Of a stretch of 64,000 bases of DNA, positions 12,501 to 33,249 are shown one piece after another (positions within the stretch are counted from its first letter, which is position 1; the number at the start of each line of letters is the position of its first letter). The DNA is taken from positions 32,001 through 96,000 of the forward strand of contig CAWFGE010000013.1 of the NCBI GenBank assembly GCA_963815195.1. Direction: 5' to 3'. The notes beneath the pieces were generated by a model. That model worked only from the letters and a program-made list of their open reading frames with translations, was not told where the DNA came from and did no database searches. Source of the DNA: an uncultured Planctomycetaceae bacterium. Its GTDB lineage: Bacteria > Planctomycetota > Planctomycetia > Planctomycetales > Planctomycetaceae. Made by a program: the position numbers and the translations under genes.

Positions 12501-15500
12501 CGACTACGCCGATGGGCAAACCAATCGCAGTGATGTGACCACCGCCATCGCCGGCTATTCGAATCCCGATGATGATTCCAATCAGGCCACGTTCCTGGGT
12601 ATTCGCGACCAGGTTTCCGGAACGGTGACGGACACTTCCAGCGCGCAAGCCACGACGGCCAGCGATGCGATCAATGCCAGCGACACGGCGAATACCGAAG
12701 GCGTGACCGAAGCGGTGATCGCGGGCACGGTCACGTCGGGCGGAAATGTTAACGTCTTTGCCAAAGAAGACGACACGCTGAAATACGTGGCGGGTGCGGT
12801 CGAGGTGGCCGCGAGTGGCAGCATCGGAGCCGGGATCGGAATCGCCACGATTAACGGTGCGGCTCTGGCCCATATCGATGGGATCGTCACCGCCGGGGGC
12901 GGCGTGACGATCGAAGCCGATCAAGAAGAGAATCTTGACGGAACGGCATTCATCGGCGAGGCGTCGACTCTCCCCGCCGCGGGGGCGGGCGTGGCGATCA
13001 TCAACGATCATAGTGTGCAGGACGCCTCGATCCGGGATGGGGCGCAAATCCTCTCGGCCTCGGCCATCACCGTGACGGCCAATCACGGCGATTCCAAGTT
13101 CGAAACGCTCGCGGTGGAAGCCCAGATCAGCGGCGTGGGGACGATCGGGGCTTCGATTGCACGCTCTGTGGCCGATGGCGAAACGTCCGCGTACATCGGC
13201 AATGCGACGATTGGGGACTTCAGCGCCACCACGCCCACGGTTGGGGATGTCACGATCGAAGCCGACTCCAATATCAGCCCCAAGGCGCGGGCCTATACCG
13301 GATCCGGCGGCGTCGCATTTGCGGGCGACGGCAATAAAGAAGTCGCCCAAGTCACCCCCACAGTGACCGCCTATTTCGCCTCCCAAGGGGGACCGGCGGC
13401 CGATGGAACCGTCTCCGGCGACAGCATCAATCGCGTCTCGGGCGATGTGACGATTGCGGTCAATTCCACGGCCGAACCGCGGGCCATCGGCGTGGGGATT
13501 GCGGTCGCTTCGGGACTGGCGATTCCCGTCACGTTGACCTCGGCGACGGCATCGCCCACTGTGGAAGCCTTTGTCGGGGAGAACACGATCCTCCATGTCG
13601 TCGGCAACGCCAAGACGGATCCGGATTCCGCCACGGGCCGGCTTGAGATTTCGGCAATTGCCGCCGATGACCCCCAAGCCGACGGCACCGCGGCCGGCGG
13701 CGCTGGGTCACCGGCGGCGGCACGGGCGTGTTTGCCACGAACAAGACAACCCTCGACGCTTACATCGCCAACGGCGCGACGGTCACCACCAACGCCGATG
13801 TGGAAATCCACGCGAGCCAGGACTATGTGGGGTATTCCCGCGGCCAGGGGGCCGACTACGGGGGATTCAGCGTGAACATCAACCAGGCCACGCTGGATAT
13901 TGAACCGGCCGTCGATGCCTATGTGGCCTCGGCCAATGTGACGGCGGCAGGAGATGTGACCGTCGAGTCCGAATCCGGCTCACCCGGCACGCTGCCCGAT
14001 CTGTCGTTCGATTCCGGGGTGGGCGTCGATTACGACCAGAACATCATCACCTTCTCCCGGCCGCATGGTTTGGACACGGGAGATTCCATCATCTACCGAA
14101 CAAACGGACATGACCCCATCGGCGGATTGGTGGACGGCGCGACGTACCAGGTGATCCGCGTGAGCGACACCGCGATCCAACTGGGCACGTTCATCTCGGC
14201 CGACCAGGTCGATAACGCGACCGGGGAAATCCAGTTCGATCTTCCCCATACCTTCGAGAACGGGTCCGCTGTGGTCTATGACGCCAACGGCAACCCGTGG
14301 ATCAACGGGCTGCGAAACGGCACGACCTACTTCATCAACGCCCTCGATGCCAGCGCCGTCAAACTGGCGTCCACGGAAGAGATCGCCAGCAACGAGTCGA
14401 TCGCGGCATTCAACGGCAAAAGCGCGGTGAACTATGGCACAAACGAGATCACTATGCCGGTGAGCTATCCTGCGACCGGCCTGCACCAGACATTTGCCGT
14501 CGGGCAAGTGGGCGCGGAGTTTATTACGACGCAGGAAAAAAGCACATCACTCGCGGTGGGGGATGCGGTGATGTACGCCCCGAACGCCAGCGCCCTCACG
14601 GTCGAACCCTTGACTCGCTTTGGGGTGTATTACATCGCCAAGATTCAAAAAAACGGCGGTGGATATGTGCAGATCGCATTGGCGCAGACGCCCACGGACG
14701 CCGCCGCCGGCAACACAATCCATTTAACATCCCAAGGCGCGGGAGAATTGGTCGGCGTAGATGTGGAGCATTGGCAGCTTGCCAGTGCGGGCGTCAATAC
14801 GCCGGCCGCCTTCGTGTTTTCGGGCTACGTGCTTTATGGGACGTCGGCCATTTTTAACCCCGCTGAGCCTTTTCCATTTGTGACCGGAGACCAGGTAAGC
14901 TGGGTGCGGACGGACGGGGATTACGCCGAAGACGTGCGGTTCGGACTCCTGCCATATATTTCGTACTATGTGAGCGTGGACAATGAAGGAGGAGCGGGCA
15001 CGTTGCAGTTGGCGAGTTCACTGGAAGATCTTCAAAACCAGAAATTCATCACTCTCACCGAACCATCAAGCTTTGAGGCGGATCCGGAAAAGAACAACTT
15101 CTTCCTAGCGCTCCAGATTCCAGCCAAGACAGGAGATGCCTTCACGTATCGGGGGCCGCAAGCCATCTCCTTCAGCGGCGACAATATTAATGTGCCGGAG
15201 GTTGAGGATCCTTCGATTGTCCATTCGATCGAGGTGACCGATGGGGATACGCTCAACACCCTGCTTTTGGATGTGCAAAACGCTTCGCTGCAGCCAGGGG
15301 AGCAGCACGGGCTGCTCGGCACCGTGTACCGTGATACCACCGTGTCTGTCAATTCTCTCTCCGTGGCTCAGCAACTCACAAAATTCGATCCGTTTTACGC
15401 CTTCGTCGCCAGCGAAGTGGACTATCCCCGAAGTACTTCCAATATAACCGACCAGACTCCCCTGGCGACGTATTTGAACCCTGACGACGATTCTCTCATC

Positions 15501-18500
15501 GGCAACACCCGGAGTGGAACCGACCCGCTCTGGGACTCGGTCTTTGTGTTCGACGGCTTTCTGAAGGTGGAGAAAGCCGGGACTTACACATTTGAAGTGC
15601 GCTCCGATGATGGATTCGAGTTGAAAATCGACAATCAGATCGTCACGAACTTCACCGGCACGCGCGCCTATGACTCCTCCACCGGCACGTACACGTTTAA
15701 CACAGCGGGGTTCTACCCCATTTCGTTGCTGCATTACGACGACAGCGGGAATTTGGGCATTGAATTCCGCAGCGATCTTACGGCCCCGGCGTCCAACGGG
15801 GATCGGGCGGTTGTTCCCAACAGCTTGCTCTACATGCCCTTGGGTTTGATTTATGAAGTCGTCTCCACGTCCGCGGATGCCGAGGCGGTTGCCCCCTTGG
15901 TCGATGGCAGTGCTTACGGCTTTGTTCCCCTGATTTCCGACAGCGGAACGGCCGACGCGTTTTATTTGCCGCTGCCGAATACCACGCTGGCGCCCAGCGA
16001 CGCGGCGAACGCCACGCAGCATCAGTTGCGAATTCCGGGTAACGATCCCATTCCGGGGTTGACGGACGGGGGACTTTATTACGTGATCGCCGATCCGTCG
16101 CGACCGGGCGTGCTTCAATTGGCGGCCAGCCGGGACGATGCCCGCAACGGCATTGCGATCGACCTGGACCTGACGCCCTCGATTCAATTGTCGCCAGAGG
16201 CCCACAAGACGGACGCCGACAGCGCGGGATTCACGGTCGTGGATTCGCTCGGCGGAAATGTCTCGGTCGCGGCCGCGGGCGACTTCAATGGAGATCGCCT
16301 GAGAGACATGCTGGTGACCGCCTCTTCTGGGACGTACATCGTTTTCGGGCAAGCGGTGGAAACGGGCACGGTCATCGACCTGGCCACGCTGGATCCCGCG
16401 ACCGGCGTCCGTCTGGATCTTGGGGGTAACCAGTTTCAAAGCGCAGGCGACGTGAACGGCGATGGCGTCGAGGACCTGCTCATCGGCGATGCGGCAAACA
16501 ATCGGGTTGACGTGGTGTATGGTTCGGCCAAGATATTTCCCGCGACCATTGCAACGGCCGATGTCGTCATCACGGGCCAGACCGGCGACGCGATTGGAAG
16601 CGCGCTCGCCGCGGCCGACGTCAACGGCGACGGCGTGGATGATTTGATTCTCGGAGCGGCGGATAACCAGCGGAGCTATGTGGTGTTCGGCTCCGCCGGT
16701 TTTGGATTGAGCGGTTCGATCAGCCTGGGCGTGCTCGCGGGAGATGGTGATGGGCTTCAAGGGGCGTTCTATGACACCGGAACCTACCAAACTCTGGATC
16801 AAGCCGAACTGACGGCATCGCGGACGACCCCGGATGTCGTGTTTACGTCCACCGCCCTCAATTACCCCGCGACTGGGGACGCCGTGAGTGATTCGGTCGG
16901 TCTCAAAACTTTTTTGGGCGCGGATGCCCCGGCGAACGCTCCGAGTACCAACCTGACCGGATCGGTATTAACCTACGGGGGCTTTCTCAAAGTGCCTCAA
17001 GCGGGAACATACACTTTTGAAGCCCATGCCGATGACGGGTTCCGCCTGCGGATCGGCAGTCAAATTGTCATTGACGACACATCGGTCGGCGGTTTCGCCA
17101 GCGGGGCCGCCTCGGGAGTCGTCACTTTCGACCGGGCGGGATTGGTTCCGATCGAATTCACGCATTGGGAGTACACGGGAAACACGGGCGTCTTACTGGA
17201 AAGCAACCTCACCGGCACGATGGAGGTCATTCCGCAAGAGTTGCTCTACTCGGTGGGCGGCTATGTGATCCAAGGCGGAACGGGCAATTTCGGAGCCGCC
17301 GTGTCCGATGCCGGCGACGTGAACGGCGACGGCGTTGAGGACATATTGATCGGAGACCCTGCAAACAATGAGGCCTTCCTCGTGTTGGGGACTTCGAACG
17401 ATCGCGGCCTGAGTCTCGATGCAAGCCGACTGGACGGCCGAAACGGTACGGTGCTCGCGGGACCATCCGGCGTCGGGCAGATGTTGGATGCCGCGGGAGA
17501 CGTGAACGGCGACGGCTACGCGGATGTTCTTCTGGGGCTTCCCGATCGAAACGAGGCCTTTGTCGTCTTCGGCTCGGAACGGTTTGCCCCGAGCATCGAC
17601 CTTCAGGACCTCACGGCGGGCGTCGGATTCGAGATCGATGGTCTCAGCAGCGATGTCGAATTGGGGACGGCTGTGACGGGATTGGGCGACATCAACCGCG
17701 ACGGGATCGACGATTTCGCCATCGCCAGTCCAAAGTCCGGAAACAATCTTCACGGCCATCTGTACGTCATCTTCGGTTCGCCGACATTGTCCGAAGCCTC
17801 GAGTTTCGACCTGGCGACCTTGGATGGGATCAACGGCTATCAACGTTCCGGATCGGCCGATAATATCCAGCTCGGCGGATCACTGGCCGGCCCGGGCGAT
17901 GTCAACGGCGACGGCGTGCGGGACGTGCTCGTGGGCGAAAACGGTCAGGCGAGGCTGCTGTTCGGATCGCCGGACGTTTTTGAGTTCAAATCGGTCGATC
18001 CGGAAGCGGAGACCGTGACGTTCACCACCGCGACCGGACTCGAAACCGGTGACGCGTTCATCTACACCGGCGCGGAAGGCGCCCGACGTGGGCGGACTCA
18101 CTTCGAATACCTTGTACTACGCCATCGTTTCGGGAAACAGCGAGGTCCTTCAGTTTGCCCTCTCGGCGGACGACGCGGCGGCTGGGGCGGCGATCGATCT
18201 CGATCTCTCCCCGCGGTTCTTGGTGGACGGGGGCACGGGAACTTTGGCCGACAGCGGACAGATCGTCGGAGCGGGGGCCACGGGCGAAGTGGCGCTGGGC
18301 GATGTGGACGGCGATGGCGATGTGGATGTGCTGGCGACCAAGGTGGCGGGGACCAATCGTTTGTTCCTCAACCAAGGGGGATCTCAAGGCGGAGTGGAAG
18401 GCGTGTTTCTCGATAGCGGCCAATCCATTGGGAGCGACGGCGAGGCCGTGAAGCTCGGAGATATTGACGGCGATGGCGACCTGGATGCGATCATCAGTGG

Positions 18501-21500
18501 GAACGAAACTCGGGTTTACGTGAACCAGGGCGGCATCCAAGGCGGCCAGCCCGGGGTCTTTCTGGACGCGGGCCAAACCTTGGGAAGCAACACGTTCGTG
18601 GAAGGCTTGGGGGACGTGGACGGCGACGGCGATCTGGACGCGTTTCTCGTCGGAGGCGACACCTTCGTGTTCCTCAATCAAGGCGGCGCCCAAGGCGGGC
18701 AAGCCGGCGTCTTCCTCGATAGCGGACAACGGCTCGGCGACGGGGATAGTTTTGCCGTCGGCTTGGGAGATCTGGACAACGACGGCGATCTGGATGCCTT
18801 TGTGGTCAATGCAGATGGCCAAAATCAGGTCTTCCTCAATCAAGGGGGCTTGCAGGGTGGAGAAGCCGGCATCTTTGTCGATAGCGGCCAACTTTTGGGA
18901 CCGGCGACCGGTAGCTCCAGCGTTGCCTTGGGGGATGTGGACGGCGACGGAGATCTGGATGCCGTGCTCGGGGCCGAATCCGGACCGGCCTTGGTGCTCT
19001 TGAACCAGACCAACGCCGGCAACCCGGCCCTTTTCGTGGACAGCGGCCAAACCCTGGGCAATGCGAGCTTTGACGTGTCCCTCGGCGATCTCGATGAAGA
19101 TGGATTCCTCGATCTCATCGTGGCCGGTTCCGGCAGTTCCGGCTTTGTTTCCGTGTTCCTCAATGACGGGGCGAATCAGGCCGGGCAATTCATCGCCACC
19201 GGCCAGACGCTGGGATCGGAGCAAAGCCTCTCGGTGAACTTGTGCGATCTGGATGGAGACGGGCACTTGGACGCCTATGTGGGGACATTGGCGCTCAATC
19301 CAAACAACTCCGGAGATCGTATTCTGCTGGGCCGGCCGAGCGCCTGGACGTCCAATGTGGATGAGGTGGCCGATACGTTTACGTTCGACGACGGCGCACC
19401 GCGGGTGACGGGCGGAGCGCCTGTGACCTATCAGGCCGCTTGGGGAACGCCGCTTATCGGTTTGAAAGATGGCGAAACGTACTTTGCCATCACGTCCGAC
19501 AGCCTCCCCGCCGACACCATTCGCATCAGCCCAACTCAGACGGGGGCTCTCACCAGCGACGGCCAAAGCAATCTGGTCCGATTTCATATCGGCTCGATGA
19601 CGCCGGGGGGGACGCATTATCTGGGGATCGAAGGTCTGGGGATCACGCAGCCGGGATCCGACCTTATCGTGGGGTCGCAAGGAACGTTCGACCCGACGGA
19701 GTTGGACGGCGAAGACGGGTTTTCCGTCAGCGGCGTCGACGACAATGAGCAAGTGGGTTCGATCGTCACCGGCGTTGGCGATCTGGACGGCGACGGTTAC
19801 AACGATTTCGTCGTCGTCGGCCAGACGCCTTATCTTGTCTACGGTTTCGACGATCCGGGAACGGGAGACTATCCCATCAATGATCCAAAGCTCGGCGGCG
19901 TGCCGATTGGGGTCGGCGGCCAGATCGTGGGCCGAGTCGGCGACTTGAACGGCGATGGTTATGACGATCTGGTCATTGGCGATCCGTCGGCCAACTCCGG
20001 GGCCGGGATGGTGTCGATCGTTTTGGGTTCAAGCGAACGCTTCACCGGCTCGATCGATCTGCCCGATAGCGTTGTGTTGGGCGAGAACGAGGGAGATCAA
20101 TTCGGGGCCTCCCTGGTCGGCGCAAATCTCAACAACGACCGCTTTGACGATCTTGTCGTCGGCGCTCCGGGAGCGGAAGGCGGTGACGGCAAAGCCTATG
20201 TCCTCTTCGGCGGTGAAAACCGAATCGGTCACGGCCTGACCGGCGCTTATTTTCATTCGGGATCGCTTCAGGATGCGGATGAGGCGGCTCAATACATCGC
20301 CGATAACGCGCCGGACGCAACCTTTGTTTCTTCTCAACTCAATTATCCACGCACCAGCGATACGCTGAATGACGCCAACAGGCTTTCGACATACCTCGAC
20401 AGCGACGCGAGCACATTGGTGGGCACCGACGCCCGGAGCCTCAATGCCTCGACATTCTCCTATGACGGCTTTTTGGTTGTCGAAACGGCGGGCACGTATC
20501 AGTTCGAACTCGGTGCCGATGATGGAGCGCGGCTGATCATCGACGGCGAAATTGTCGCTGATAAAACGAAAGGCGCCTTCGGCACGACCGCCCACGATTA
20601 CACGTTTGACCAACCCGGCTTATACCCGATCTCCGTCGTGCATTTCGAGGATGGAGGGAACACGGGAGTCGATATCAAAAGCGACCTCGGCGGCAGCCTG
20701 GAGCCTTTAACGACAGAGTTCCTCCGCACGGTCGCCTGGGATCTGAGTGAACTCGACGGCACAACGGGATTCGTGCTTGATGGAGCGGGAACCGATGCGG
20801 CCTTGGGCGCGGCAGTGGGGGCGGCGGGCGATATTAATAGTGATACGATCGCGGACGTGATCGTCGGCGCGCCGGGAACCGCCGCGGCCTATGTGCTCTT
20901 CGGCAGTACCAGCCCTTACACGGAATCGCTCGACGTGGCCACATTCACCGGCAATGGCTCCGGCGTCACGCTCGAGGGCGACTTAAACAGTCAAACGGGC
21001 TTTTCGGTGAATGGTGCGGGCGACATCAACGGCGATGGCCTCGACGATGTCATCATTGGAGCGCCCGCCGCGTCCCCCGACGGCCGCGCGGAAGCGGGGC
21101 AAGCTTTTATCGTTTTCGGGTCGGCAAAGGCCTTCCCGAGCTCGGTCGACTTGACGATGCTCGACGGCACGATCGGGTTCGTGTTGAATGGCGGGGCGGC
21201 GGGCGATCGTGCGGGCACATCGGTCGCCGGCGTCGGCGACATCAATGGGGATAGCATTGACGATGTCCTCATCGGATCCCCCTTTGCCAATTTCGATGGC
21301 CGGGAGAACGTCGGGGTCGCCTATCTTTTGTTTGGCGGCCAGAACATCGGCCAACAGTCGGGCCAGATTCTGACGGCCCTGGGAAGCGCAGCGCTGGCGA
21401 TGACCGGATCAGACGACGATGGCCACTTGGGCATGGCCCTGTCGGCCTTGGGCGATATTAATGGGGACACCGCACCGGATTTGATCGTCGGCGCGCGGGG

Positions 21501-24500
21501 GCTTCCGCGGATCGCGGTCTCGCCTTCGTGACGTTCGGGATCGATCCCAACGCGAAACACATTCTGATTGCCGACTTGACGAAACCGGCATCCACCGGAG
21601 TCCAAGAGTTTCTACAGGACGCGAAGACGCTCTCCCCCACCCCGCTGACTGGGATGCCACACGTTTCCGCTTGGGGATCCTCCGGAGCTTTGATCGGCGG
21701 GGAAGGATCGCATATCTTCGCCACCATCAAACCCACGGTCCGGGCCTTCATCGGTGATCCCGATAATTCGGGAACCGCCACGACGGCAAACGTCACGGCC
21801 GGAGACGAGGTTTATATCCAGTCCGTATCGGCGACGGATGTGAAGGCCGACGTGACCGGGTTTTTGTTTACGGCCATCGGCGGCGGCAACGCGGTCAGTA
21901 CCGTCGATCTTGGCGGGCAATCGAACGCCTACGTCGGCAAGGACGCCCGAGTGTTCGCCCAGGGGGGGGACTTCACCCTGTTGGCCCAGTCGAACGACAC
22001 GGTGGACGCCAGCTCGACCGCGATTTCCGGGGGCGTTGTCGATGTGTTCGAAGCGAAAACGTTCCCCACGCTGGCGAGCACAACCACCGCCTTCGTCGGC
22101 CCGAGTTCGGTAATCACCGCTGAGGGCGATGTGTACGTTGAAGCGACGAAAGCCACGAATCTCTCGGCCACGTCCAGCAGTGTGGCCGGCGGAGTCCTTG
22201 TCACGCCCCAATCCATCGTAGAGGCCAGCGTGGGCAACAGTGGCGATACGATCCTGGCGTTTGTCTCGGGCGGTTCGCAGGTCACAAGCCAGCATGGCAC
22301 GAAGGGCATTGTCGTGACGGCCTCGAATTCCCCGCAAGATGTGCTTGACGTGAAGGCCACGGGCCGGAGTTACGGTTTATTCACAGGACAGAAGGCCAGT
22401 GCCGGCCTCACCCTCAATGAGCAGACCCGCGTCAAGACCGAGGGGACATACAGCGGAAGCGAATTGACCGTGACATCGACGTTGGCGTGGGACAAGGTCT
22501 CTGTCACCTCGGATTCCCGGGCGGAGTGTATTGGGCGTGGCCTATGCCGACTCCACGCTGGACGGAACGATCAACACCGTGGTCGATCAAGACTCCACGG
22601 GGATTTCGAATGTGCATGAAGTGCATTCGACCCAGGACTTGAAGAACGGCACAAATGGAACGCCGGCCACCGTGCAAAAGACGACACAGAACACATTCCT
22701 GTTTATTGGACTGACCAAACCCAAGACCGTCAGCGGGGCAAACAATATCAACGTACTGCCTGCTCCCGCGACAGCGAGTCCGCAGATTCTCGGCGTCGGC
22801 AGCGATGCCACGGAATTGAACCTGGCCGAAGAAGGCGATGTGGTCACGCTCTCGGCCACGTTTACGGATGACCTCACCGAAACGCATACCGCGGTGGTGG
22901 ATTGGGGCGACGGAAGTATTCCCACCCCAGCGATAATCGCGCAGGACGGTGACCATTTTGCCGTCGAGGCCACGCACATCTATCACAACGGAGGCATCTA
23001 TCCCATCACGCTGACGGTGACGGATGAATTTGGATTGGTGGACACCGCATCCACAACCGCGCACGTGACGGGCGTGGGCGTTGTCAACGGCGTGCTGTAT
23101 GTCATTGGCTCGCCAGGCAACGATACCGTGGAGATCACCGACCTCTTCGGCGTGCCCCAGGTCGTGACCAATTTCGCCGACGACTTCCAACCCGCGGTTA
23201 TCGTGAATGACATCTTAGTCGAGTTGTTCGGCGGAGACGATACCGCCTTTGTCTCGAGCGCAATCACGGCCAGAGTCGCGATCGACGGCGGCGACGGGAC
23301 CGACGCGTTTTCCAGCGATGCATCGCTGATCGTCGGATCGGCCGGTCATGTCCGCGTCGCCGGGACGGAGATTGTGGGCACCGGTTTTGAATTCCTCGGC
23401 GGCGTGACGGAGATCGATGGCAGCGACGAAGCCGACACAATCTCTCTCTTCAACGATCGCGTCGTCGTGAACGGCACCACCGTGAATTTGTCCGATGCGT
23501 CTGACCTGACGATCCGCCCCGGCGCAGGCGACGATCAGGTTGACTTCTTCGTGGACGGCGACTCCGCAGCCTCGGCCCCCCGAACGATGACGGTTGTGGA
23601 GACCGACGGCGACGACACCTATGCCTTCAACGCCTCAAACCTGGAGATCGCGATTCAGGACGATGCGGGAGTCGATACGCTCGACTTCTCGCAACTCCCC
23701 TCGGCGATTGAAATTTCGCTGTTGCTCGACGGCGGCGAACCGCAAAACATCGGGTCGGCCAACGTCGGACTGAGCTTGACGGGCACGTTCGAAGAAGTAA
23801 TCGGCACCAGCGCCGACGATGTGATCACCGGCGACGATGCCGATAATATCCTCATCGGTGGCGACGGCGACGACAGGCTTTCGGGCGGGTTCGGCAACGA
23901 TGTTCTCGACGGTGGTGCCGGCGACGACCTGCTGCAAGGCGGCTGGGGCGATGACAAACTCTTTGGCGGGGCGGGCGATGATTTGCTCGAAGGAGAACGC
24001 GGCAACGACATTCTCGTCGGAAACGAAGGCGACGACGTCCTGGAGGGGAGTTTCGGGAGAGATCTCCTTATTGGCGGTCTGGGCGACGACTTTGCCTTCG
24101 GCGGCACAGGCGATGATATTCTCATCGGCGGCTCCACCGCATACGACGAAGAAATTGCCAATCTGATGTTGCTCATTGCGGAGTGGACCTCGCCGAGAAC
24201 GTACATTGAGCGACTGGCCGATCTCCGATACGGCGGCGGGGAATTTCTGGCGGGGACCGGTGTCGCGTTGTCCGCGACGGGCGACTCGCAGACCGTGTTC
24301 GACGACGGCGTCATCGATGAACTCACCGGAAATAGCGGGCAAGACTGGTTCTTTGCCGACAAACTGACCGATCAGATCACGGACCGGGCGAATAATGAAC
24401 TCTTAGATTCGATCTTCCCTGCCGGCGAGGCGGACGTGCAAATCTTCGCTGTCGGAAGCGGGCCGGGGATGGCATCGACCGTCAAGGTGTACCGTTCCCA

Positions 24501-25671
24501 GTCCGGCGAACTGGTCCGCCAGTTTTCGCCCTACGGCGGTTTTCTCGGCGGGGTGCGGGTTGCCACCGCGGACGTTGACGGCGACGGCGTGGCGGACATC
24601 ATCACGGGCGCCGGTCCCGGCGGCGGACCGCACGTCAAAGTCTACGATGGAGTCACGGGCGCGGAAATTCGCAGTTTCATGGCGTTCGACCCGGGTTTCA
24701 CAGGGGGCGTATTCGTCGCCGCCGCGGATCTCGATCGCGATCTAAGGGCGGAGATCGTCGTGGGAGCCGATGCCGGCGGAGGCCCGCATGTTCGCGTTTT
24801 CCTGGGCGTTGACAATTCCGAGTTGTTCAGCTTTTTCGCCTATGATCCCGGTTTCAAGGGAGGCGTCCGCGTCGCGGCGGGCGACATCACGGGCGATGGC
24901 ATACCGGACATCATCACCGCGGCCGGTCCCGGCGGCGGACCCCATGTGCGGGTCTTCGATGGAGCGACTCCCCAACTCGGCGGATTGGGAATCGACATCG
25001 GCGGTCCTCGGGGAAGTTTCTACGCCTATGATCCCGCATTCACCGGCGGCGTGTTCGTCGCGGCGGGCGATGTCAATGGAGATTCCCAGATCGACCTCAT
25101 CACCGGGGCGGGAGCGGGCGGGGGTCCGCATGTCCGCGTGATTGACGGCGGCACGGGTTCGCAACTCGCCGGCCCCATCGGCAGTTTCATGGCCTACGAT
25201 GTCGGCTTCACGGGCGGCGTGCAGGTTGCCTTTGGTGATGTGGACGGCGACGGCCATCCAGAGATTATCACGGCCGCCGGCCCTGGCGGCGGTCCCCATG
25301 TGAAGGTTTTCAACGGGGAGAGCCCCGACACTCAGCCTCGAGAAGTTCGCAGTTTCTTCGCCTTTAATGCCGACTTCACCGGCGGCATATTCGTCGCCGC
25401 CGGCACGATTCAAGAGAGTCCCTTTTCGTCATGGCAAGTCAGCGACAATCTTGATTCGGCTCAGGATGCATTGCCCGCTCCCGGCGAATCGCAGTTGGGG
25501 TTGATCATCCCGGACGAGACAGCGGCCGGCAATGATTCGCTCGTTGACCCCGCTCCAATTGCCGATGACGAACTCGTAAGCATGGAACCCGACCACCCCC
25601 GATTATCCGATCCAAAGATCTTGGATCTGCTTTTTTCCGACGAAGACCTGTTGGAAGCTGTCTTCGCTTAG
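589..25671 (+). CDS. Giant secreted adhesin-like exoprotein (~8,300 aa), split by 8 apparent frameshifts
   Basis: Nine same-strand ORFs abut or overlap with continuous repeat grammar (469-3402, 3461-6316, 5871-8915, 8924-12325, 12217-13875, 13728-18416, 18049-21531, 21528-22619, 22531-25671). Only the first has an N-terminal export motif (ELEDRTLLS, 742-768). Junctions examined fall in simple repeats (G5 at 3366-3370, GCGCGC near 8908). Start codon uncertain; ATG 589 chosen. Confidence 0.85.
742..768 (+). other. Planctomycete extracellular-protein N-terminal motif (LEPR-XLL-like, ELEDRTLLS)
   Basis: Translation ADELEDRTLLS preceded by an Arg-rich leader; known signature of planctomycete giant exoproteins. 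Confidence 0.8.
1270..3280 (+). other. Integrin-alpha/FG-GAP beta-propeller region 1 of the giant protein, with a PA14 domain inserted at ~2095-2620
   Basis: Repeats AGDVNGDGxDDxxIGAPG...YVxFG and LDGxxGF; PA14 motifs GLSGMFY...FTFNGSLYVAEPGAYNFEVGSAEGFRLTIDG. Confidence 0.85.
15309..15833 (+). other. PA14 domain 2 of the giant protein
   Basis: GLLGTVY...FDGFLKVEKAGTYTFEVRSDDGFELKIDNQIV...GFYPISLLHYD. Confidence 0.85.
16240..21500 (+). other. FG-GAP/VCBS propeller regions with PA14 domains 3 (~16752-17250) and 4 (~20233-20730)
   Basis: AGDVNGDG repeats; DSGQxLG..LGDVDGDGDLD repeats (~18230-19330); PA14 motifs GTYTFEAHADDGFRL and GTYQFELGADDGARL. Confidence 0.85.
22790..25410 (+). other. C-terminal PKD domain, RTX Ca-binding nonapeptides and GAGPGGGPHV FG-GAP-type repeats of the giant protein
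   Basis: VDWGDG..HIYHNGGIYPITLTVTD (PKD); GGDGDDRLSGGFGNDVLDGGAGDDLL (RTX, ~23810-24130); repeated GAGPGGGPHVKV...AYDPGFxGGVxVAAGD. Confidence 0.85.
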
Positions 25672-25759
25672 ATCATCCGTTCGGGGGTGCAGCACCTCGT
25701 CCGCCGAGATCCAGCTCCCATTCGGCGATTCTCGATGACGCGACGGGCCGTCAACGGAT

Positions 25760-26837
25760 TCATTCCGCCAGAAGAACTTCGATTTTCTTGCGCATGTATT
25801 TCTCGCCGTCATTGCCGTTCCACTTCAGTTCGCCAGCCCAGTGTTCGCGGAAGTAGCCTTCCTTGTCGATCAGATACACGCTGGGCCACATCGAGTTGCC
25901 CCAGGCGTTCCAGTTGGCCTTCTTGCCGTCGATGAGAATCGGAAAGCCGAACTTCGGCTTCGGCGGCTTTGCGGCGGACGGAAGCGCTGTTCTGTTCGGC
26001 GTTCGTCTCGGGGGTGTGGATGCCGACGATGACCACGTCTTTGTCCTTGAAGCGCTCGCTCCACTCGCGATACCAGGGATAGTTGTGAATGCAGTTGATA
26101 CAGCCGAAGGCGTAGAAGTGGACGACGACCACTTTGCCGCGGAGCTGCTCCAGCGAGAGCGGAGGCGGAATTGATCCACTCACCGGTGCCGACAAAGTCG
26201 GGAGCCCGAAAGTCGCGGCTGACTGATATTCAAGCCGGCGAATGGCTTGCCCATCATTTCGTCAGAGCGGCTCGCTGGGAGGGCCTTAAGACGCCGAGGA
26301 GTTTTTTCTGCTGGTCAGCCAGAAGGTTGTCGTACTCTTTCTGGCCAACTGGCGATCCTTGCCTCCATCATGTACGCTGCTTTGTGGAGAGCCGCGACGG
26401 CATCTCTGGTTTCGTTGTTGATCGTCTCGATCTTCGCCTTCTGCACGTTTGAGTAATCCAGCCGATCGGCGACCTCTTTGTGCAGCAGCGCTTCGCTGCC
26501 CCAGACGCTGCAACACCAGCTCGGAGTAACGCTGCAGCTGTTCCGGTTCGAGCAGATTCTGCAGTTTCTCGCGTGCTTCAGCCGTGATCTTCGTGGCCCC
26601 GGCAACGGCGGCTTCGCGCGATTGGTTTCGCAGCGGAAGGAACCGCAGGTCAAGGTCGTCTCGCATGGCATGAAACGACTTTCCCTGTGCGGGGCTCAAA
26701 TTCAATTCCGCAATCGCGGCAGGCTCGTGTAGAAGAGTCCAGAACGGATCGTTCCAGGGTTCCGTTTCAGCCCCGCGGGCTCCAACAATTCCGAACCCGA
26801 GCAGGCAGAAAGCTGACAAGACCATGACGTAACGCAT
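25760..26837 (-). CDS. Secreted redoxin/thioredoxin-like protein (DipZ-like C-terminal domain), several frameshifts
   Basis: Signal peptide MRYVMVLSAFCLLGFGIVGARG; LRGKVVVVHFYAFGCINCIHNYP (CxxC), IGIHTPE and MWPSVYLIDKEG spread over ORFs 26286-26837, 26315-26671, 25809-26195 and 25760-26179. Confidence 0.8.
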
Positions 26838-26923
26838 ATTTCACCTCTGTGAGAGTTGTAAGTGAAGTCTGCACTCCATATCGGCCCGGGAGACCTAAAT
26901 CACCGTGTGCGATTGTGCGCGGG

Positions 26924-27185
26924 TTGAGGAACGGGCTGATGGAATACTCCGGATCGCGGGGACAAACCAAAGGATGCAAGTGCTCCGGCATGATGGCGTA
27001 GGCCCACAGGTCAAACCGGTGTTTCTCACAAGCACGTTGAAGCCCTCGATCATCCATCCCCGACTTCGATCTTTTGACAGAAAGGGTTGCCCGCGAAAGC
27101 AAGAAAACGTCAAAGCGTGGGCGTGGCCCGGTTCATCAATCCGGTGACAAGTCTTACGATGTTTGCTCCGATTTGCAACGGCCAT
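26924..27185 (-). pseudogene. 3'-truncated copy of the REP-associated tyrosine transposase (RAYT)
   Basis: 26924-~27127 reads identical to the segment starting at 31482 (offset 4558). Encodes HALTFSC and MPEHLH but ends before the catalytic YIHxNP. Confidence 0.9.
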
Positions 27186-27228
27186 CTCAACTCCGCTTGC
27201 CACCACGGCCGTTTTACCATTCGGAGCA

Positions 27229-27260
27229 CATGCTCATGCAAAGCCATGAGCATGCCACCC
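27229..27260 (-). repeat. REP copy 1 (GGGTGGCATGCTCATGGCTTTGCATGAGCATG on minus strand)
   Basis: 32-bp sequence with CATGCTCATG/CATGAGCATG stem and GGTGG foot; five identical copies in the locus. Confidence 0.95.
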
Positions 27261-27319
27261 CGCCGCAGCGCCCATCTCAACTCCCCCAGGTCAACTGGGC
27301 CGTTTCACCATTCGGAGAA

Positions 27320-27356
27320 CATGCTCATGCAAAGCCATGAGCATGCCACCCCGCCG
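27320..27356 (-). repeat. REP copy 2 plus CGCCG extension; left boundary of the AT-rich cassette
   Basis: Exact 37-bp reverse complement of 31115-31151. Confidence 0.95.
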
Positions 27357-28010
27357 GGAAATTAAGGGGGTTGCCTAAAATTCTAGGGTATATCGCTGGT
27401 CGATGAGAACAAGCCCCTGAGCCGGTTGGCTGCTCAGGAGCATCGATTAAAGCAGCACTCTCGTAAAGGTCAATGAAACCTAACCCTAGAGAAGATGCGA
27501 ATGGAAAATCATGTTGCGGCCTTTGATCTCCTCTCTTCGACCATTTCTTCGATCATCTCGATCAACTTTTTCCATTCCACTGCAATCTTGTTTTGCAAGG
27601 CTTGGTGAGCAGCCTCGCAACTGTTGTTGATCTGCTCGTCGGTCATTTCGCTGATCGCCGTCCGAAAGCCAGAACCTTTTCCCCAACGCCCCTCACATCG
27701 ATTCCAAAATGTCTGGTCCTTTTCTAACGTCTTCCGAAAAGCCGTTTGGCTCGAATCCAGCATACTCTTGGCTCCCTTTTCAACGGCCACTTCAACTCTT
27801 GTGTTGACCCTTTCAAGAAAGGGCTTCGCTGGAGCGTTAGCGGCATTAGTCATAAGATTGTGCAGAAGGACTTGGAGTTCACCGATTCTGCTTTTGATTT
27901 GGCTCACTGCTAAGTGTTGGCCTCCTTTAGCCAGATGGTGATAGTAATCCAAATCAGGGTAATTCCCATTTCTCCGAACCGAAGCCCATATTTTGGCAGG
28001 ATACTGTATC

Positions 28011-29478
28011 CACCCCTTTCAACATGTTAGTTTTTTGCTATAAGTCGCTTCTACAGGGATTGTTGTATCAAACCTTATGGAGGCGGCAAGGATGTGGCCC
28101 GACGCTGTGCTTGATCGTTTTGTGGAACAATGTCCAGCGGCAGTGATGGTTCGAGCGACGCTCGAGAATCTTGTGTCGCCGGATCGCCTGGATGAGATTT
28201 TCGCCGACGCTTCGCAGAGACAATACGAGAAAGAATTGCTGTTTTCGCAAGTGGTGGCCCTGATGATGGGCGTGGCGACGCGGACGCACAAGTCGGTCCA
28301 TGCCGGGTACTTGGCGGCCAAGGAGCAACTGGCGGTTTCGCCGGCCGCACTTTATGGCAAGTTGAACCGTCTGGAACCCGGCCTTTCGGCGACGATGATC
28401 CGGGAAACGAGCCAGGACGCGGCTCAAGTCATCGATGCCATGCCGGGAGCATGCCGCGAACTTTTGCCGGGCTATCACGTGCAGTATTTGGACGGGAATC
28501 ATTTGGCGGCGACTGAGCATCGGCTGGCGGAATTGCGCGTCACGCGGGAAGGCCCTTTGCCGGGCCAGACCTTGGCGCTTCTGGATGCGCAGCGGGATCT
28601 GATTTCGGAACTGCTTCCGTGTGAAGACGGCCATGCCCAGGAACGTTCGCTTCTGCCGGAGTTTCTGGAATGGATCCGGGCCGAGACAGTGACAATCGCC
28701 GACCGGAACTTCTGCACGACCAAGTTTCTGTTTGGAATTGTCAAGCAGTCGGCCTACTTTGTCATTCGCCAACACGCTTCGACACTCACCTGGAAACTCG
28801 TCGGTCGCCGGAAACGCATCGGACGCATCGAAACGGGTCTTGTTTTCGAGCAGTCGGCCGAGCCTGTCCCAGGGTGAAGAGACGTTGCGAGTCCGGCGGA
28901 TCACCATCCAATTGGATACGCCCACAGAGAATGGTGACACTGAGATTCACATCCTGACCAACTTGCCTGTCAAAGTCGCCAATGCGCAAAAGTGGCTTTT
29001 CTGTATCGCAAGCGCTGGACGATTGAAGAAGCCTTCCAAACTCTGACCGAGGTGTTGCGCTGCGAAGTGGAGACGCTGGGCTACCCCAAGGCGGCGCTGT
29101 TCGCCTTCGCCACGGCGGTTTTGGCTTATAACACCTATGCCGTGGTGAAAGCGGCGCTGCGATCGGTTCACGGTGAAGAAACGATCGATGAAGAACTGTC
29201 GGACTACCACCTGACGCAGGACGTGACTGCCACGACGGTGGGCATGAACATCGCCGTGGACGCGGAAATCTGGGAGGGCTATCAAATCATGCCACCTCGA
29301 AAACTCGCGATCGAGTTGGTGCGACTCGCGAAACGCATCGACCTGACGCGTTACCCCAAAAAGAAACGCGGGCCGAAAAAACCACAGCCTCGAAAAAAGA
29401 GCGGCAAACGGAATCACCATATCTCCACCGCGCGAACCCTGGCCAAATCCAGGGGTAAGTGACATGTTGAAAGGGGTG
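28011..29478 (+). mobile_element. IS4-family insertion sequence (1468 bp)
   Basis: Perfect 17-bp TIRs CACCCCTTTCAACATGT (28011-28027 and 29462-29478); 11-bp direct repeat GATACTGTATC at 28000-28010 and 29479-29489. Confidence 0.95.
28092..29462 (+). CDS. IS4-family DDE transposase (two apparent frameshifts near 28860 and 28990)
   Basis: YLDGNHL, IADRNFC and LYRKRWTIEEAF (YREK-type motif); RBS GGAGG at 28079-28083; stop overlaps the right TIR. Confidence 0.9.
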
Positions 29479-31114
29479 GATACTGTATCTTATTGATTGC
29501 CTCAACTAGTTCTTTCTGAACTCCCTTGTCGTTCGGTTCGAAGTCCCGATGCTCGTCAATCCAAGTTTTGAGTGTTCCATCGACATGCTTGTAGACAGCC
29601 CGAACCTGTTCGTCCTTTTGATCTTTAATCAGACGATTTACGTCTTCTCCCAATCGAGCAATTTCTTCGACATGAGTTTGCCGGAGATTGTTTATCATGG
29701 TCACGATTTGCTTGCGGATTTTATCGGTGTTCTCCGAAGCAGCGTTATAGAATCCAATGTTGAGCTTGCCGACACCAACATCCTTCAATAAGAGTTCAAT
29801 CTGCTCAGACTTAACCTCATATCCATCTTCATCAGATTCCACCATTTCACCATCGGGCCATCTCGTTACCGATGCTTCTCCAGGCTTTGGAAGCACCAAG
29901 AGCAATGTTGTGGCGTTCAGATTCCTAACTCCCGAAGCAATGGCTCGTTGTAATAATGTCTGCGTAGCAACCGAAGGGGCATCATTGAAGGAACTACACA
30001 AGACAACGATTGTGCAATCGTTGTCAAAATGGCATTCCAGGTCTGCTCGCTCTGCTGTTTGGTCAATTCCCTTCGTGTCGATTATTCGAAGCGATAAGTT
30101 TTCAAGATCCGAAAGCGGATACGGAACGGTGACCTCGATCCGATCAGGCATTGATACGTCAGGTTGTCGTCCATTATTGACCTTGGAAAAGGTATTTTGG
30201 AGCCAGCGCTCAGGAAATTCTGCTTCTTCATCGGGAATCCACAACTCAGCTGTCACTCTACGATCCAAACTCATTCTTCGAAAGATTTCCTCAGCCAACT
30301 CGACTTGATCGGACATTTGTCGAGCGAGTTCTTCAGCCAAATTAACTCTCGTCGTACTTCCGTCTTCATCCGTTCGCTTTTCGGACAAAAGGCCCGTCAT
30401 GTTTCGGATTGCACGAACGATCTCGCCGGAAATTCCCAAACGGTTGGTCCCATCACCAGACGCCGCTCCCTTTGATTCATTTGGGTGCGTCTTCCGAAAA
30501 AGGTACTCAGCATAATCGGCAACGTCTTTCTGAATTGACTCCGCTATTCTTGGCTCAATAAGCAACCCAAATCGATTTCCTTCCGATATTTCGACTTCGC
30601 AAATTGTAATTCCCCCACTCCCCGTTTCTAAAACAACCTGCTTGGTCAGTTGTGGTTCCTCTTCAACGAGGAGGCCAGTCATCTTGCAGATTGCAGTTGA
30701 TTTTCCAACTCCGATATTCCCAATGAAAGCAACTTTATGTTCCCTCGCTCGCAGAAAATAGGCACAACGGCTAAGTTCGTTCTCATAGGCAACAATATGG
30801 CCGAGGAAGACGGGATGAAGCCCCTCCGTAGCTTTCAGCAGGGCCAACTTTTCCAATGACTCTTCGGCGTGCCAGAGTGTTTTCACGTTCGGATGAATCG
30901 GCTCCGGTTGATGAAGGTGTTTCCAAGTCTTGCCATTGAAACTAGCCTGATCGGCGGTCATTTTACTTTCCTTCGTCGTGGGGAGACATTTTATATTTCG
31001 CTACCCAATTGTTTCTGCCTTCTGGTGGATTTAACCAACATATCCGTTTGTTTGAGCAGTTTCCACCGAGTATTGTTACACGAAAATGTCATTTTCCGGA
31101 ATTCTGAATGGTAT

Positions 31115-31151
31115 CGGCGGGGTGGCATGCTCATGGCTTTGCATGAGCATG
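31115..31151 (+). repeat. REP copy 3 (inverted); right boundary of the cassette and 3' flank of RAYT
   Basis: CGGCGGGGTGGCATGCTCATGGCTTTGCATGAGCATG, 5 nt from the RAYT stop codon. Confidence 0.95.
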
Positions 31152-31156
31152 CTGAT

Positions 31157-31743
31157 TCATCCCTCTTTTGCTCGTGGAAAGGAATCTCTATCCATCCTCA
31201 GCAACCCCGTCCCAGGTTCCTGCCATTCGGCGGCGCTGGACCACACCCATTCTTCGGGGCGTTCACAAAATCCGCGTCTCACAGGATTGGCATGAATATA
31301 AGCAACTTCCGCCCAAACGGTAGATGGTTCTGTCAGGTTCCGGTCATAGCCTCCCCCACGTTGCCAGAAACGGTAATGCACATCTCCATTCGGCTGAAGA
31401 TCTTTCATTCGGGGAAGTAAATCGGGAGCCTGCTCTTGAACATACTTCAACGCTTTCTTGGAGACGGACTGTTTGAGCCTCTTGAGGAACGGGCTGATGG
31501 AATACTCCGGATCGCGGGGACAAACCAAAGGATGCAAGTGCTCCGGCATGATGGCGTAGGCCCACAGGTCAAACCGGTGTTTCTCACAAGCACGTTGAAG
31601 CCCTCGATCATCCATCCCCGACTTCGATCTTTTGACAGAAAGGGTTGCCCGCGAAAGCAAGAAAACGTCAAAGCGTGGGCGTGGCCTGGTTCATCAATCC
31701 GGTGGCAAGTCTTACGATGCTTGCTCGAATTCGCAGCGCCCAT
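31157..31743 (-). CDS. REP-associated tyrosine transposase (RAYT/TnpA-REP, HUH Y1 family), one frameshift near 31602
   Basis: HALTFSC, AYAIMPEHLH (HUH), FWQRGGGYDRNL, YIHANPVRRG (catalytic Tyr) and WVWSSA; flanked by inverted REPs. Confidence 0.92.
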
Positions 31744-31787
31744 CTCAACTCCCCCAGGTCAACTGGGCCGTTTTACCATTCGGAGCA

Positions 31788-31872
31788 CATGCTCATGCAA
31801 AGCCATGAGCATGCCACCCATCGTTTCATCATTCGGAAACCATGCTCATGCAAAGCCATGAGCATGCCACCC
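31788..31872 (-). repeat. REP copies 4 and 5 (31788-31819, 31841-31872) upstream of RAYT
   Basis: Two tandem identical 32-bp REPs. Confidence 0.95.
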
Positions 31873-31879
31873 AAACGCG

Positions 31880-33249
31880 CTATACCAACTCGTGCAGCGG
31901 GGCGGGGTTTTCGTTGAGGAGTTTGATCGGGAAGTCGGCGTCGGTGCGGATGAAGCCTTGGGGGTCGATGCCCAGGTTGTGGTACAGCGTGGCCAGGATT
32001 TCCTGGAACTTGACCGGGCGGTCGTCGGGGTGGCCGCCGTCGGCGGTGGTGGAGCCGATGACCTGGCCGGTCCGCAGGCCGCCGCCGGCCAAGAGGCGCA
32101 ACTTGCCGGGGGCCAGTGGTCGCGGCCGGCGTTTTTGTTGATCTTGGGCGTGCGGCCGAACTCGCTGCACACCAGCACGGTCACATCATCGATCAGATCC
32201 CGCTCTTTGAGGTCGGTGATGAGCGCGGACAGGCCGTGGTCCACGATCGGCAATCGCTCGCGCATCTGGCCGAAGTTGTTGCCGTGATAATCCCAGCGGC
32301 CGTAGCCGAGCGTCACGCAGCGGACGCCGATTTCAATCAGCCGCCGGCAGAGGAGGATTTGCTCGTTCCAGATCGGCGGTCCGTCGTCCACGTTTTTGGA
32401 GGAGCCGCCGGTCGCGGGGCTGCCGATGCCGTAGCGTTTGAGGATTTTGGGATCTTCCTGCGTGATGTCGAGGGCGGTGAGGAGTTTGCTGGAGGTCAAC
32501 ACGTCGAAGGCCTGCTCGTAAATCGCCTGGGTGCCTTGGAGCATGGCGTTGTCCACATCCCGCCGGAAGCCGTCGAACGCGGACAGCAGTTTTTGGCGGT
32601 TTTTGAGCTGGTCGAGCGTGATGCCGTCGAGCTGCATGGCTTTGATGTCGTCGCCGTCGGGCCGGACCGGAGCATACGCCCGCCCCAGCTTGCCGGGAAA
32701 GCCGATGTCGGCCCAGGGCTTATGGCCGCAGTCTTTGCTGAGCCCCATAAACGGCGGCACCGCGGGATCGGGGGAACCCAAAGCCCGCGCGATGAAGGAA
32801 CCGACCGAGGGTTGCTCCAGCCGCTGCTGATCGCCCCGGCGATAACCGCTGAGGCATTGGGTGGCGGCGTGGGCTCCGTCGGAATCGGCGATCGAGCGGA
32901 TGATGGCGAACTGGTCCATCATCTGGGCCAACCGGGGCATCAGTTCGCAGATCTCGATGCCGGGCACGTTGGTGGGGATCGGCTGGAACTCCCCGCGAAT
33001 GTCGGTCGGGGCTTCGGGCTTGAGATCCACAAAGTCCTGGTGCGAGACGCCGCCGGCGAGGAAGATCTGGATCACGGCCTTCTTGGAATTGGGATCGCCC
33101 TGTTTGGTGTTCGATCCTTGAGCCTCGGCTTGGAGGATTTGCGCGAGGCTGAGTCCGCCCAATCCGAGGGCGCCGATTTTCAAAAACGAACGCCGATTCG
33201 CGGAATCACAAAATCGCTGCTTCGCACCCGAGATGGTCAACATTGGCAA
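31880..33249 (-). CDS. DUF1501 domain protein (frameshift near 32100)
   Basis: RRSFLKIGALGLGGLSL N-terminus; FLAGGVSHQD, IRGEFQPIPTNVPG, SEFGRTPKIN...GRDHWP, then LAGGGLRTGQVIGST in ORF 31880-32170. Confidence 0.88.

Follow-up and report, generated by a model that had tools for sequence, protein, structure and literature searches.

The closest described relatives of the locus reported here are the REPtron/REPIN-RAYT systems of E. coli, Pseudomonas and Stenotrophomonas, in which a Y1 HUH enzyme, the REP-associated tyrosine transposase (RAYT, TnpA-REP), lies between inverted repetitive extragenic palindromes (REPs) with a 5' tetranucleotide foot, and REP doublets (REPINs) are dispersed. RAYTs are found in about a quarter of bacterial species and, in the available parts of the sources, are described as single-copy, vertically inherited and of unknown benefit to the host (PMC6006769, PMC8266576, PMC3116915, PMC5581495, 10.1101/2021.07.10.451892). 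REP spread, tandem REPIN-plus-flank clusters and joining in vitro are described in the accessible text of this literature, not gene cargo (PMC6006769, PMC3733652, PMC5581495, PMC8266576, PMC3116915, 10.1101/2021.07.10.451892, 10.1101/2024.07.17.603846), and natural RAYT products beyond REP spread are undocumented in those parts of the RAYT literature that were examined. Here we analysed a 64,000-nt stretch (the window) of an uncultured Planctomycetaceae bacterium (GCA_963815195.1, contig CAWFGE010000013.1; G000:C13:32001-96000 in our numbering), in which a RAYT and its REPs at 26924-31872 accompany a low-GC cargo gene. The cargo is bounded by a fixed dinucleotide 4–5 nt beyond the REP foot, where arbitrary DNA is attached.

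As in RAYT/REPtron systems, the RAYT gene of the window lies between inverted REP hairpins that have a tetranucleotide foot on their 5' side, and the REP families with a GTAG foot in this genome join at C/T (the slash marks the cut) as in vitro. In contrast to those systems, genes and gene fragments were found at REP ends and RAYT units were duplicated and relocated, while the clade of the window RAYT has a (G)GGTG foot, a WQxGGGYDRN motif and a C/G junction. The single-copy, fixed-position trait of RAYTs does not hold, as direct duplicates occur in the window and at two loci of a related genome (L117, L273). Elements of the IS200/IS605 type (IS608, ISDra2) resemble the locus in the single-strand HUH chemistry predicted for its enzyme, in the host-derived motif kept at the junction and apparently in the lack of target duplication, according to the portion of PMC8266576 that was seen. 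Here, however, the ends are symmetric REPs instead of distinct left and right ends, TnpB is absent and the moved DNA is variable. Direct repeats of the form element-cargo-element, and the acquisition of neighbouring gene fragments with a single precise end, are also features of IS26 translocatable units, ISCR/IS91 and Helitrons. IS26 is a DDE enzyme, and ISCR and Helitrons are Y2 rolling-circle enzymes; at the present locus it is small dispersed REPs that appear to be acted on in trans. No report of REP-bounded gene arrays was found in the literature searched, which was without subscription journals and supplements; this REP family could be among those tabulated in the supplements of PMC3733652 and PMC6006769.

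The source genome (G000; 8.87 Mb, 25 contigs, ∼60% GC) was compared with three genomes of the same genus (G001, G002 and G003). G001 carries an orthologous DUF1501-REP-RAYT-REP block with 91% identity to the window. This similarity breaks off precisely at position 31115, at the CG that forms the 5' end of the REP, and an unrelated low-GC gene follows. For a relative, the initial annotation had predicted that different cargo would be joined ∼5 nt beyond the REP foot, and G001 bore this out to the base. The G001 cargo gene (TM0106 nuclease/IS66-like) starts 80 nt beyond the junction, and the cargo is closed by a GTAG-foot REP whose foot points to it; downstream, ∼3 kb of small low-GC open reading frames (ORFs) lie between further REPs. 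The distance from this same junction to the gene start is 80–153 nt in G000 and G001. In G003, another REP family and other low-GC DNA were found after the DUF1501 orthologue.

For each REP of G000 and of 41 loci retrieved from relatives, the junctions were examined by seeking a REP-free homologue of the foot-side flank, with a threshold of ≥88% identity over 45 nt, in register to position –9. There were 31 distinct qualifying events, three of them in one array on contig C21 and one with homology running through the foot. For GTAG-foot families, 17 of 20 joins shared AG within –8 to –4 of the foot (chance 0.18, binomial 1e-10). For GGTG-foot families, CG was shared in 9 of 11 (chance 0.41, p 0.008), and the family of the window (family A) had CG in 6/6 joins, five of which were at exactly –7/–6 (chance 0.11 each). 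AG corresponds to C/T on the opposite strand, 4–5 nt 3' of the inverted REP, and C/T is the cut site of the E. coli and S. maltophilia TnpA-REP in vitro, as reported in the part of PMC8266576 consulted. The junction dinucleotides lend indirect support only to cleavage and joining of single-stranded REP DNA by RAYT, and it is quite likely that RAYTs made these joins. A C/G cut specificity, new compared with the published C/T, is predicted for the clade of the window RAYT.

The initial annotation had noted a CGCCG extension only at those REPs that lie at junctions. This is correct among the five local copies and does not extend further: genome-wide, the exact extension occurs in 18/44 copies of the family, and the two outer REPs of the locus also have CG 4–5 nt beyond the foot. 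With CG at –7/–6 in 37/44 family copies as well, CGCCG is the family consensus, and its CG is the join site.

The locus and its surroundings contain the following features.

26924–27228, minus strand: second copy of the RAYT, truncated to its 5' part (ATG at 27185), leader divergent; 271-nt duplicate 26924–27194, 97% identical to 31482–31752.
27229–27265, minus strand: REP copy 1, GGTG/GTGG foot, 10–11-bp hairpin, CG at 27264–27265.
27266–27356, minus strand: 91-nt inserted unit of RAYT start, leader and REP copy 2 (27320–27356), CG-joined; 98% identical to 31732–31819, the signature of a tandem unit.
27357–31114, no strand: low-GC cargo between foot-inward REPs, as given by GC counts.
27509–27999, minus strand: C-terminal piece of the cargo P-loop GTPase gene, matching residues ∼558–706 of 720–730-aa homologues.
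28011–29478, plus strand: IS4-family element with 11-bp target duplications (28000–28010, 29479–29489).
29490–30961, minus strand: N-terminal piece of the cargo gene (P-loop, dynamin/SrfC-like GTPase; Pfam MMR_HSR1, E 2.6e-4), ribosome-binding site (RBS) at 30969–30973.
31115–31151, plus strand: REP copy 3, downstream of the RAYT, CG at 31115–31116; point of divergence between G000 and G001.
31157–31743, minus strand: RAYT (TnpA-REP) of the GGTG-foot clade, WQxGGGYDRN motif, PF01797 E 2e-5.
31788–31872, minus strand: REP copies 4 and 5, upstream of the RAYT; 53-nt tandem unit.
31880–33249, minus strand: DUF1501 host gene, the conserved anchor.

The 32-nt REP, of which there are five copies, folds as an 11-bp DNA hairpin (z about –4). 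The REPs at 27320–27356 and 31115–31151 form the perfect 37-nt inverted pair with feet toward the cargo that had been described (100% complementary), and 27229–27265 pairs equally well with 31115–31151. The earlier hand counts of GC (26/60 in the cassette, 36/60 in ilvB) were exact, and the cassette is indeed AT-richer, with 46.7% GC excluding the insertion sequence (IS), 56.7% in the IS and 61.8% in ilvB.

Exactly CG is common to the junction at REP copy 1 and the RAYT 5' donor. The CG at 27355–27356 is the present left junction of the cargo, and that of REP copy 1 (27264–27265) was probably the original one. The 53-nt tandem unit of REP copies 4 and 5 is again joined at CG, and the truncated leader begins at the CG after copy 4. 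The leader of the left RAYT copy is unlike that of the right copy, and the G001 leader has some features of each; the left copy is probably a different allele. It is also real rather than a misassembly, because the short-read contig X2 (26817–27029, 4 differences, no gap) bridges the truncation point at 26924. Loose ends at 27266 in X2 and an 89-nt contig (X4) join the REP to other DNA; their loci could not be assigned, and they were not used as evidence. The short-read contigs were from four metagenome runs of depth 1–5. About 15 copies of the IS4-family element are present in the genome, its ends are supported by loose ends in short-read contigs, and its insertion is a later event that broke the cargo gene. 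Compared with short-read contigs, the G000 assembly is error-prone: at least 9 indels, located in the redoxin genes and in the IS, are probably assembly errors, and indel errors among the IS copies were random as well as recurrent. The redoxin-type genes (window 25760–26837) carry at least 7 indels that are absent from short-read contigs, and the DUF1501 gene is apparently frameshifted near 32100.

As claimed initially, the cargo besides the IS is a single gene with its own RBS (start 30961, AAGGA, stop 27509), encoding 657 aa when read across the IS. It has 679 homologues with identity up to 50%. Most of these have an N-terminal XRE helix-turn-helix (HTH) of ∼65 aa, which the cargo copy is without. 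The initial annotation had also considered that relatives might carry the GTPase gene here without REPs; the GTPase was not found in the 120 family genomes searched. For its function, there was no PADLOC match, no NCBIfam match over the cut-off and no solved relative. Atlas feature matches for the homologue P0002 were to unnamed, SrfC-named and Dynamin_N clusters, which serve as leads only. A scan for sigma-70-like promoters that could drive the cargo from the RAYT/REP side gave 5 sites compared with 3.1 expected, none of them between the RAYT and the cargo start, and this idea was rejected.

The RAYT was stated to be full length on one side with a truncated duplicate on the other. The length and the duplicate were confirmed, but the gene as assembled is frameshifted: it is one base short compared with G001 near codon 47, in both window copies, at a site that no listed short-read contig spans. 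Against the NF047646 profile (cut-off 80), the intact G001 orthologue (L001:8967-9599, 210 aa) scored 86.4 bits and the frameshifted body of the window copy 65.9 bits. Another intact RAYT of the same clade is present in G000 (C11:44466-45077). H69/H71 (HUH), W127 (WQ motif) and Y149 (the single catalytic Tyr, YIxxNP) are invariant in all five aligned RAYTs. The GTAG-associated RAYTs have an E. coli-like WQxxxWEH region, whereas the window clade has WQxG(G/P)G(Y/F)DRN; the WQ-region motif contacts the guide, according to the accessible part of PMC6006769. Relatives of the window RAYT are mostly from Planctomycetota, a placement that the DUF1501 and FG-GAP genes also seem to suit. Across this phylum (L033-L112, L173-L251), the window RAYT clade is flanked by REPs starting with GGGTG(G/C)CATG, to which a GGTG foot fits better than the canonical GT[AG]G. 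Of 61 genomes searched, four contained the window REP itself, and these all belong to this genus; in G000, the 48 copies of this REP form 23 clusters, dispersed mostly as doublets.

Genome-wide, G000 contains ten REP families with 391 copies. Counting all ten families, 54 foot-inward pairs enclose 200–6000 nt, and 31 of these segments have <55% GC. In 2000 random sets matched for length, such low-GC segments numbered 3.7 on average and 12 at most. Many foot-inward segments consist of one whole ORF with short margins. In the clearest parts of the arrays on contigs C12, C15 and C20, there is one ORF per gap, and the ORFs are co-oriented. These arrays of single-gene units, and one at L001, vary between strains, the sites being empty or different in congeners; the cargo of four tested G000 arrays had mostly no match in G001–G003. 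Among 78 cargo ORFs (70 of the 111 called and 8 from adjacent stretches), 47 were without a Pfam match. The remainder include Imm22, SUKH, Imm26, Imm50, PT-HINT toxin tips, ankyrin, WD40, P450, IS genes and some host genes.

Some units could be followed between genomes. One end of a two-gene unit (DUF389 and a neighbour; C15:626886-628388) is joined to a REP of family A, at a CG native to G001; the other end is joined to a REP of family H, at an AG native to G003, which showed no REP at this place. This is the one case of capture at both ends. The 4-kb array around this unit is absent in G002 (∼120 nt) and replaced by one REPIN and another gene in G001. An 8.5-kb RAYT/REP stretch of G001 stands at a site of 140 nt in G000, and much of it resembles a toxin-immunity tail without separating REPs. 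A polymorphic-toxin tail (PT-HINT, Tox-HNH-EHHH, Imm26, Imm50) was seen directly downstream of a GTAG-clade RAYT at L115:4768-11550 in G001, with the G000 site empty. G001 has the RAYT-cargo-RAYT direct repeat of the window at two loci, with RAYTs of two other families (L117 and L273), and at L273 short tandem REP units precede the second RAYT copy. The REP-RAYT-REP unit of RAYT-D occurs in different contexts in three genomes, with identity stopping within 4–6 nt of the foot. Pieces of host genes (ribA, DUF1501, ABC ATPase; 200–460 nt) are attached to REP ends at C4:69108-73209, C6:145393-147191, C23:42687-44402 and C15:624155-626635 of G000. The C15 piece is only 90% identical to the resident gene, which suggests that its donor was another strain. 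A comparison of ribA with REP-D that was one base out of frame was excluded from the counts.

The empty redoxin-to-DUF1501 site that had been anticipated was not seen in the three congeners. No such site can be defined, because the left flank (window 8000–27000) has no orthologue in them; there were paralogue matches of 67–69% in G001 and G002, and none in G003. This region of at least 19 kb holds two large FG-GAP/VCBS-type surface-protein ORFs (18049–21531 and 22531–25671), and a 100-nt piece of a 3' end (window 25584–25685) has a 92% copy between the two RAYT copies at L117, resembling a captured fragment. At L001:9677-12491 of G001, a TM0106 RecB-like nuclease overlaps an IS66-like transposase, with REP junctions at the ends and no obvious IS66 ends; the pair is probably one frameshifted fusion. 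At L001:9560-9599, the RAYT frame continues through the downstream REP and its stop TAG begins exactly at the cargo junction, so that the captured DNA provides the stop codon. REP/RAYT arrays often adjoin DUF1501 genes (window 31880, G000 C6, C12:602k, C15:628k and L273), which could be a preferred target or merely reflect gene abundance.

Taken as a whole, we judge it reasonably probable that repeated RAYT-catalysed single-strand joins formed the locus, one of them bringing in the foreign GTPase gene. In this scheme, a RAYT dimer bound to a REP on a single strand would cut the bound strand at the dinucleotide immediately 3' of the inverted REP. A second strand, also cut at this dinucleotide, would then receive the 3'-OH. 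A single event of this kind would add host, IS, RAYT or foreign DNA to a REP at one end; with two events, on opposite strands, a gene would end up between foot-inward REPs. If one strand is cut twice, a circle of cargo plus one REPIN, or of cargo plus a REP-RAYT-REP unit, may be released; joined again at another REP end, such circles would produce REPIN-gene-REPIN arrays and direct repeats of the form RAYT-cargo-RAYT. In the window, the joining at 31115 would have involved a circle made up of the GTPase gene and a second RAYT allele; the product would be the same if homologous recombination had taken place through the RAYT. Later steps would have been the re-insertion of 91 nt at 27265, the loss of part of the second RAYT (truncated at 26924) and the arrival of the IS4 element.

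Several observations weigh against this explanation. The guide rule in the part of PMC8266576 seen predicts CC or CA for GTGG, not C/G. The proposed composite element was not seen to move as a unit: REP-bounded recurrence on both sides at a second place was found for 0 of 71 foot-inward segments, with relatives read in part for this test. Read mining in the four low-depth runs gave no circles or empty-site joints. At solitary REPs (n = 127), GC was 0.580 on the foot side and 0.583 on the head side (p 0.83), and low-GC cargo was lacking in REP family F (3/74). The junction test is biased toward duplicated DNA and its 31 events are partly non-independent; a control on the far ends of copied pieces gave too much noise to be scored. 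The window RAYT may be dead. Distant RAYT relatives had paired REPs in 48 of 159 loci, mostly with a GGTG foot; in 29 long loci the downstream GC was lower in 6 and higher in 7, and at least 3 segments were found in 0/93 long loci. Because arrays were lacking in these distant relatives, the strong array pattern is so far a property of this genus; generality across the phylum is unsupported by the GC and segment counts.

Some of these points would be expected if one-ended joins, adjacent deletions and duplications made by RAYT at REP ends were a by-product without cassettes, with foreign DNA arriving by other routes and REPs persisting mainly in dispensable islands. The arrays would then be scars instead of a capture system. 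All 31 scored joins were one-sided or tandem: there were no clean two-sided insertions, donor continuation within 3 kb was missing in 20, and 11 were tandem or partial duplications, including the 91-nt unit at 27266–27356. The pieces were 53–988 nt long, many of them host, IS or RAYT fragments. The lack of a recurring two-sided cassette and of a foot-side GC bias, the poor synteny everywhere in the genus, and the tandem REPIN-plus-flank clusters known in Pseudomonas (PMC3116915, in the part available) fit this account too. However, whole single ORFs with short margins, co-oriented in the clearest arrays, the DUF389 unit cut at the predicted dinucleotides on both ends, and the start of a gene 80–153 nt from the same junction in both G000 and G001 are not what a by-product should leave, and we regard this account, the main rival, as rather unlikely. 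Ordinary transposition, in which REP doublets and REP-RAYT-REP units insert whole into pre-existing islands and the junction precision marks element ends only, agrees with the REPIN size (<200 nt) of 98 of 121 foot-outward pairs and with the view of REPINs as non-autonomous mobile units in the literature seen in part. It is very unlikely, as the donor continued directly beyond the element in none of the 31 events, the tandem donor itself excepted, and at the orthologous RAYT the upstream side is common to both genomes whereas the downstream DNA is unrelated.

Integron arrays (IntI/attC) later decorated by REPs, or artefacts of long-read assembly, were considered together. IntI genes over the cut-off occur in 3 of 4 genomes of the genus, and assembly indel errors are many. 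But a simple motif-and-fold scan gave no attC-like sites in the cassette and 2 in the 54 segments, and the sole G000 IntI over the cut-off is on contig C25, without a REP; with neither IntI nor attC at these loci, the integron reading was rejected. As for artefacts, the dinucleotide rule is constant across genomes and a short-read contig spans the 26924 junction. The pair of explanations is hardly credible. In G002, a family-A REPIN (L129:8217-8360) lies ∼1.4 kb from an integron integrase gene with two in-frame TAG stops.

The preferred explanation by RAYT-catalysed capture has a more ambitious form, which we hold tentatively, at a little under an even chance: an HUH-based analogue of integrons, in which several RAYT/REP pairs of one planctomycete genome would excise single-stranded circles of a gene with a REPIN or a REP-RAYT-REP unit and stack them at REP ends. 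Integrons likewise have arrays of short genes, mostly unknown or of immunity type, between hairpin sites processed as single strands; here, in contrast, the loci have no IntI or attC, and several REP/RAYT families occur in one array.

Chromosomal joins with genes attached, on the published C/T dinucleotide, would be an in vivo footprint of RAYT chemistry. The intact G001 enzyme, with its REP and its predicted new specificity, could matter for tools that join single-stranded DNA. Gene capture and rearrangement would give RAYTs a concrete, testable function, and if the integron analogue is true, the benefit for which hosts keep RAYTs would lie in arrays of immunity, toxin-tip and unknown genes that differ from strain to strain.

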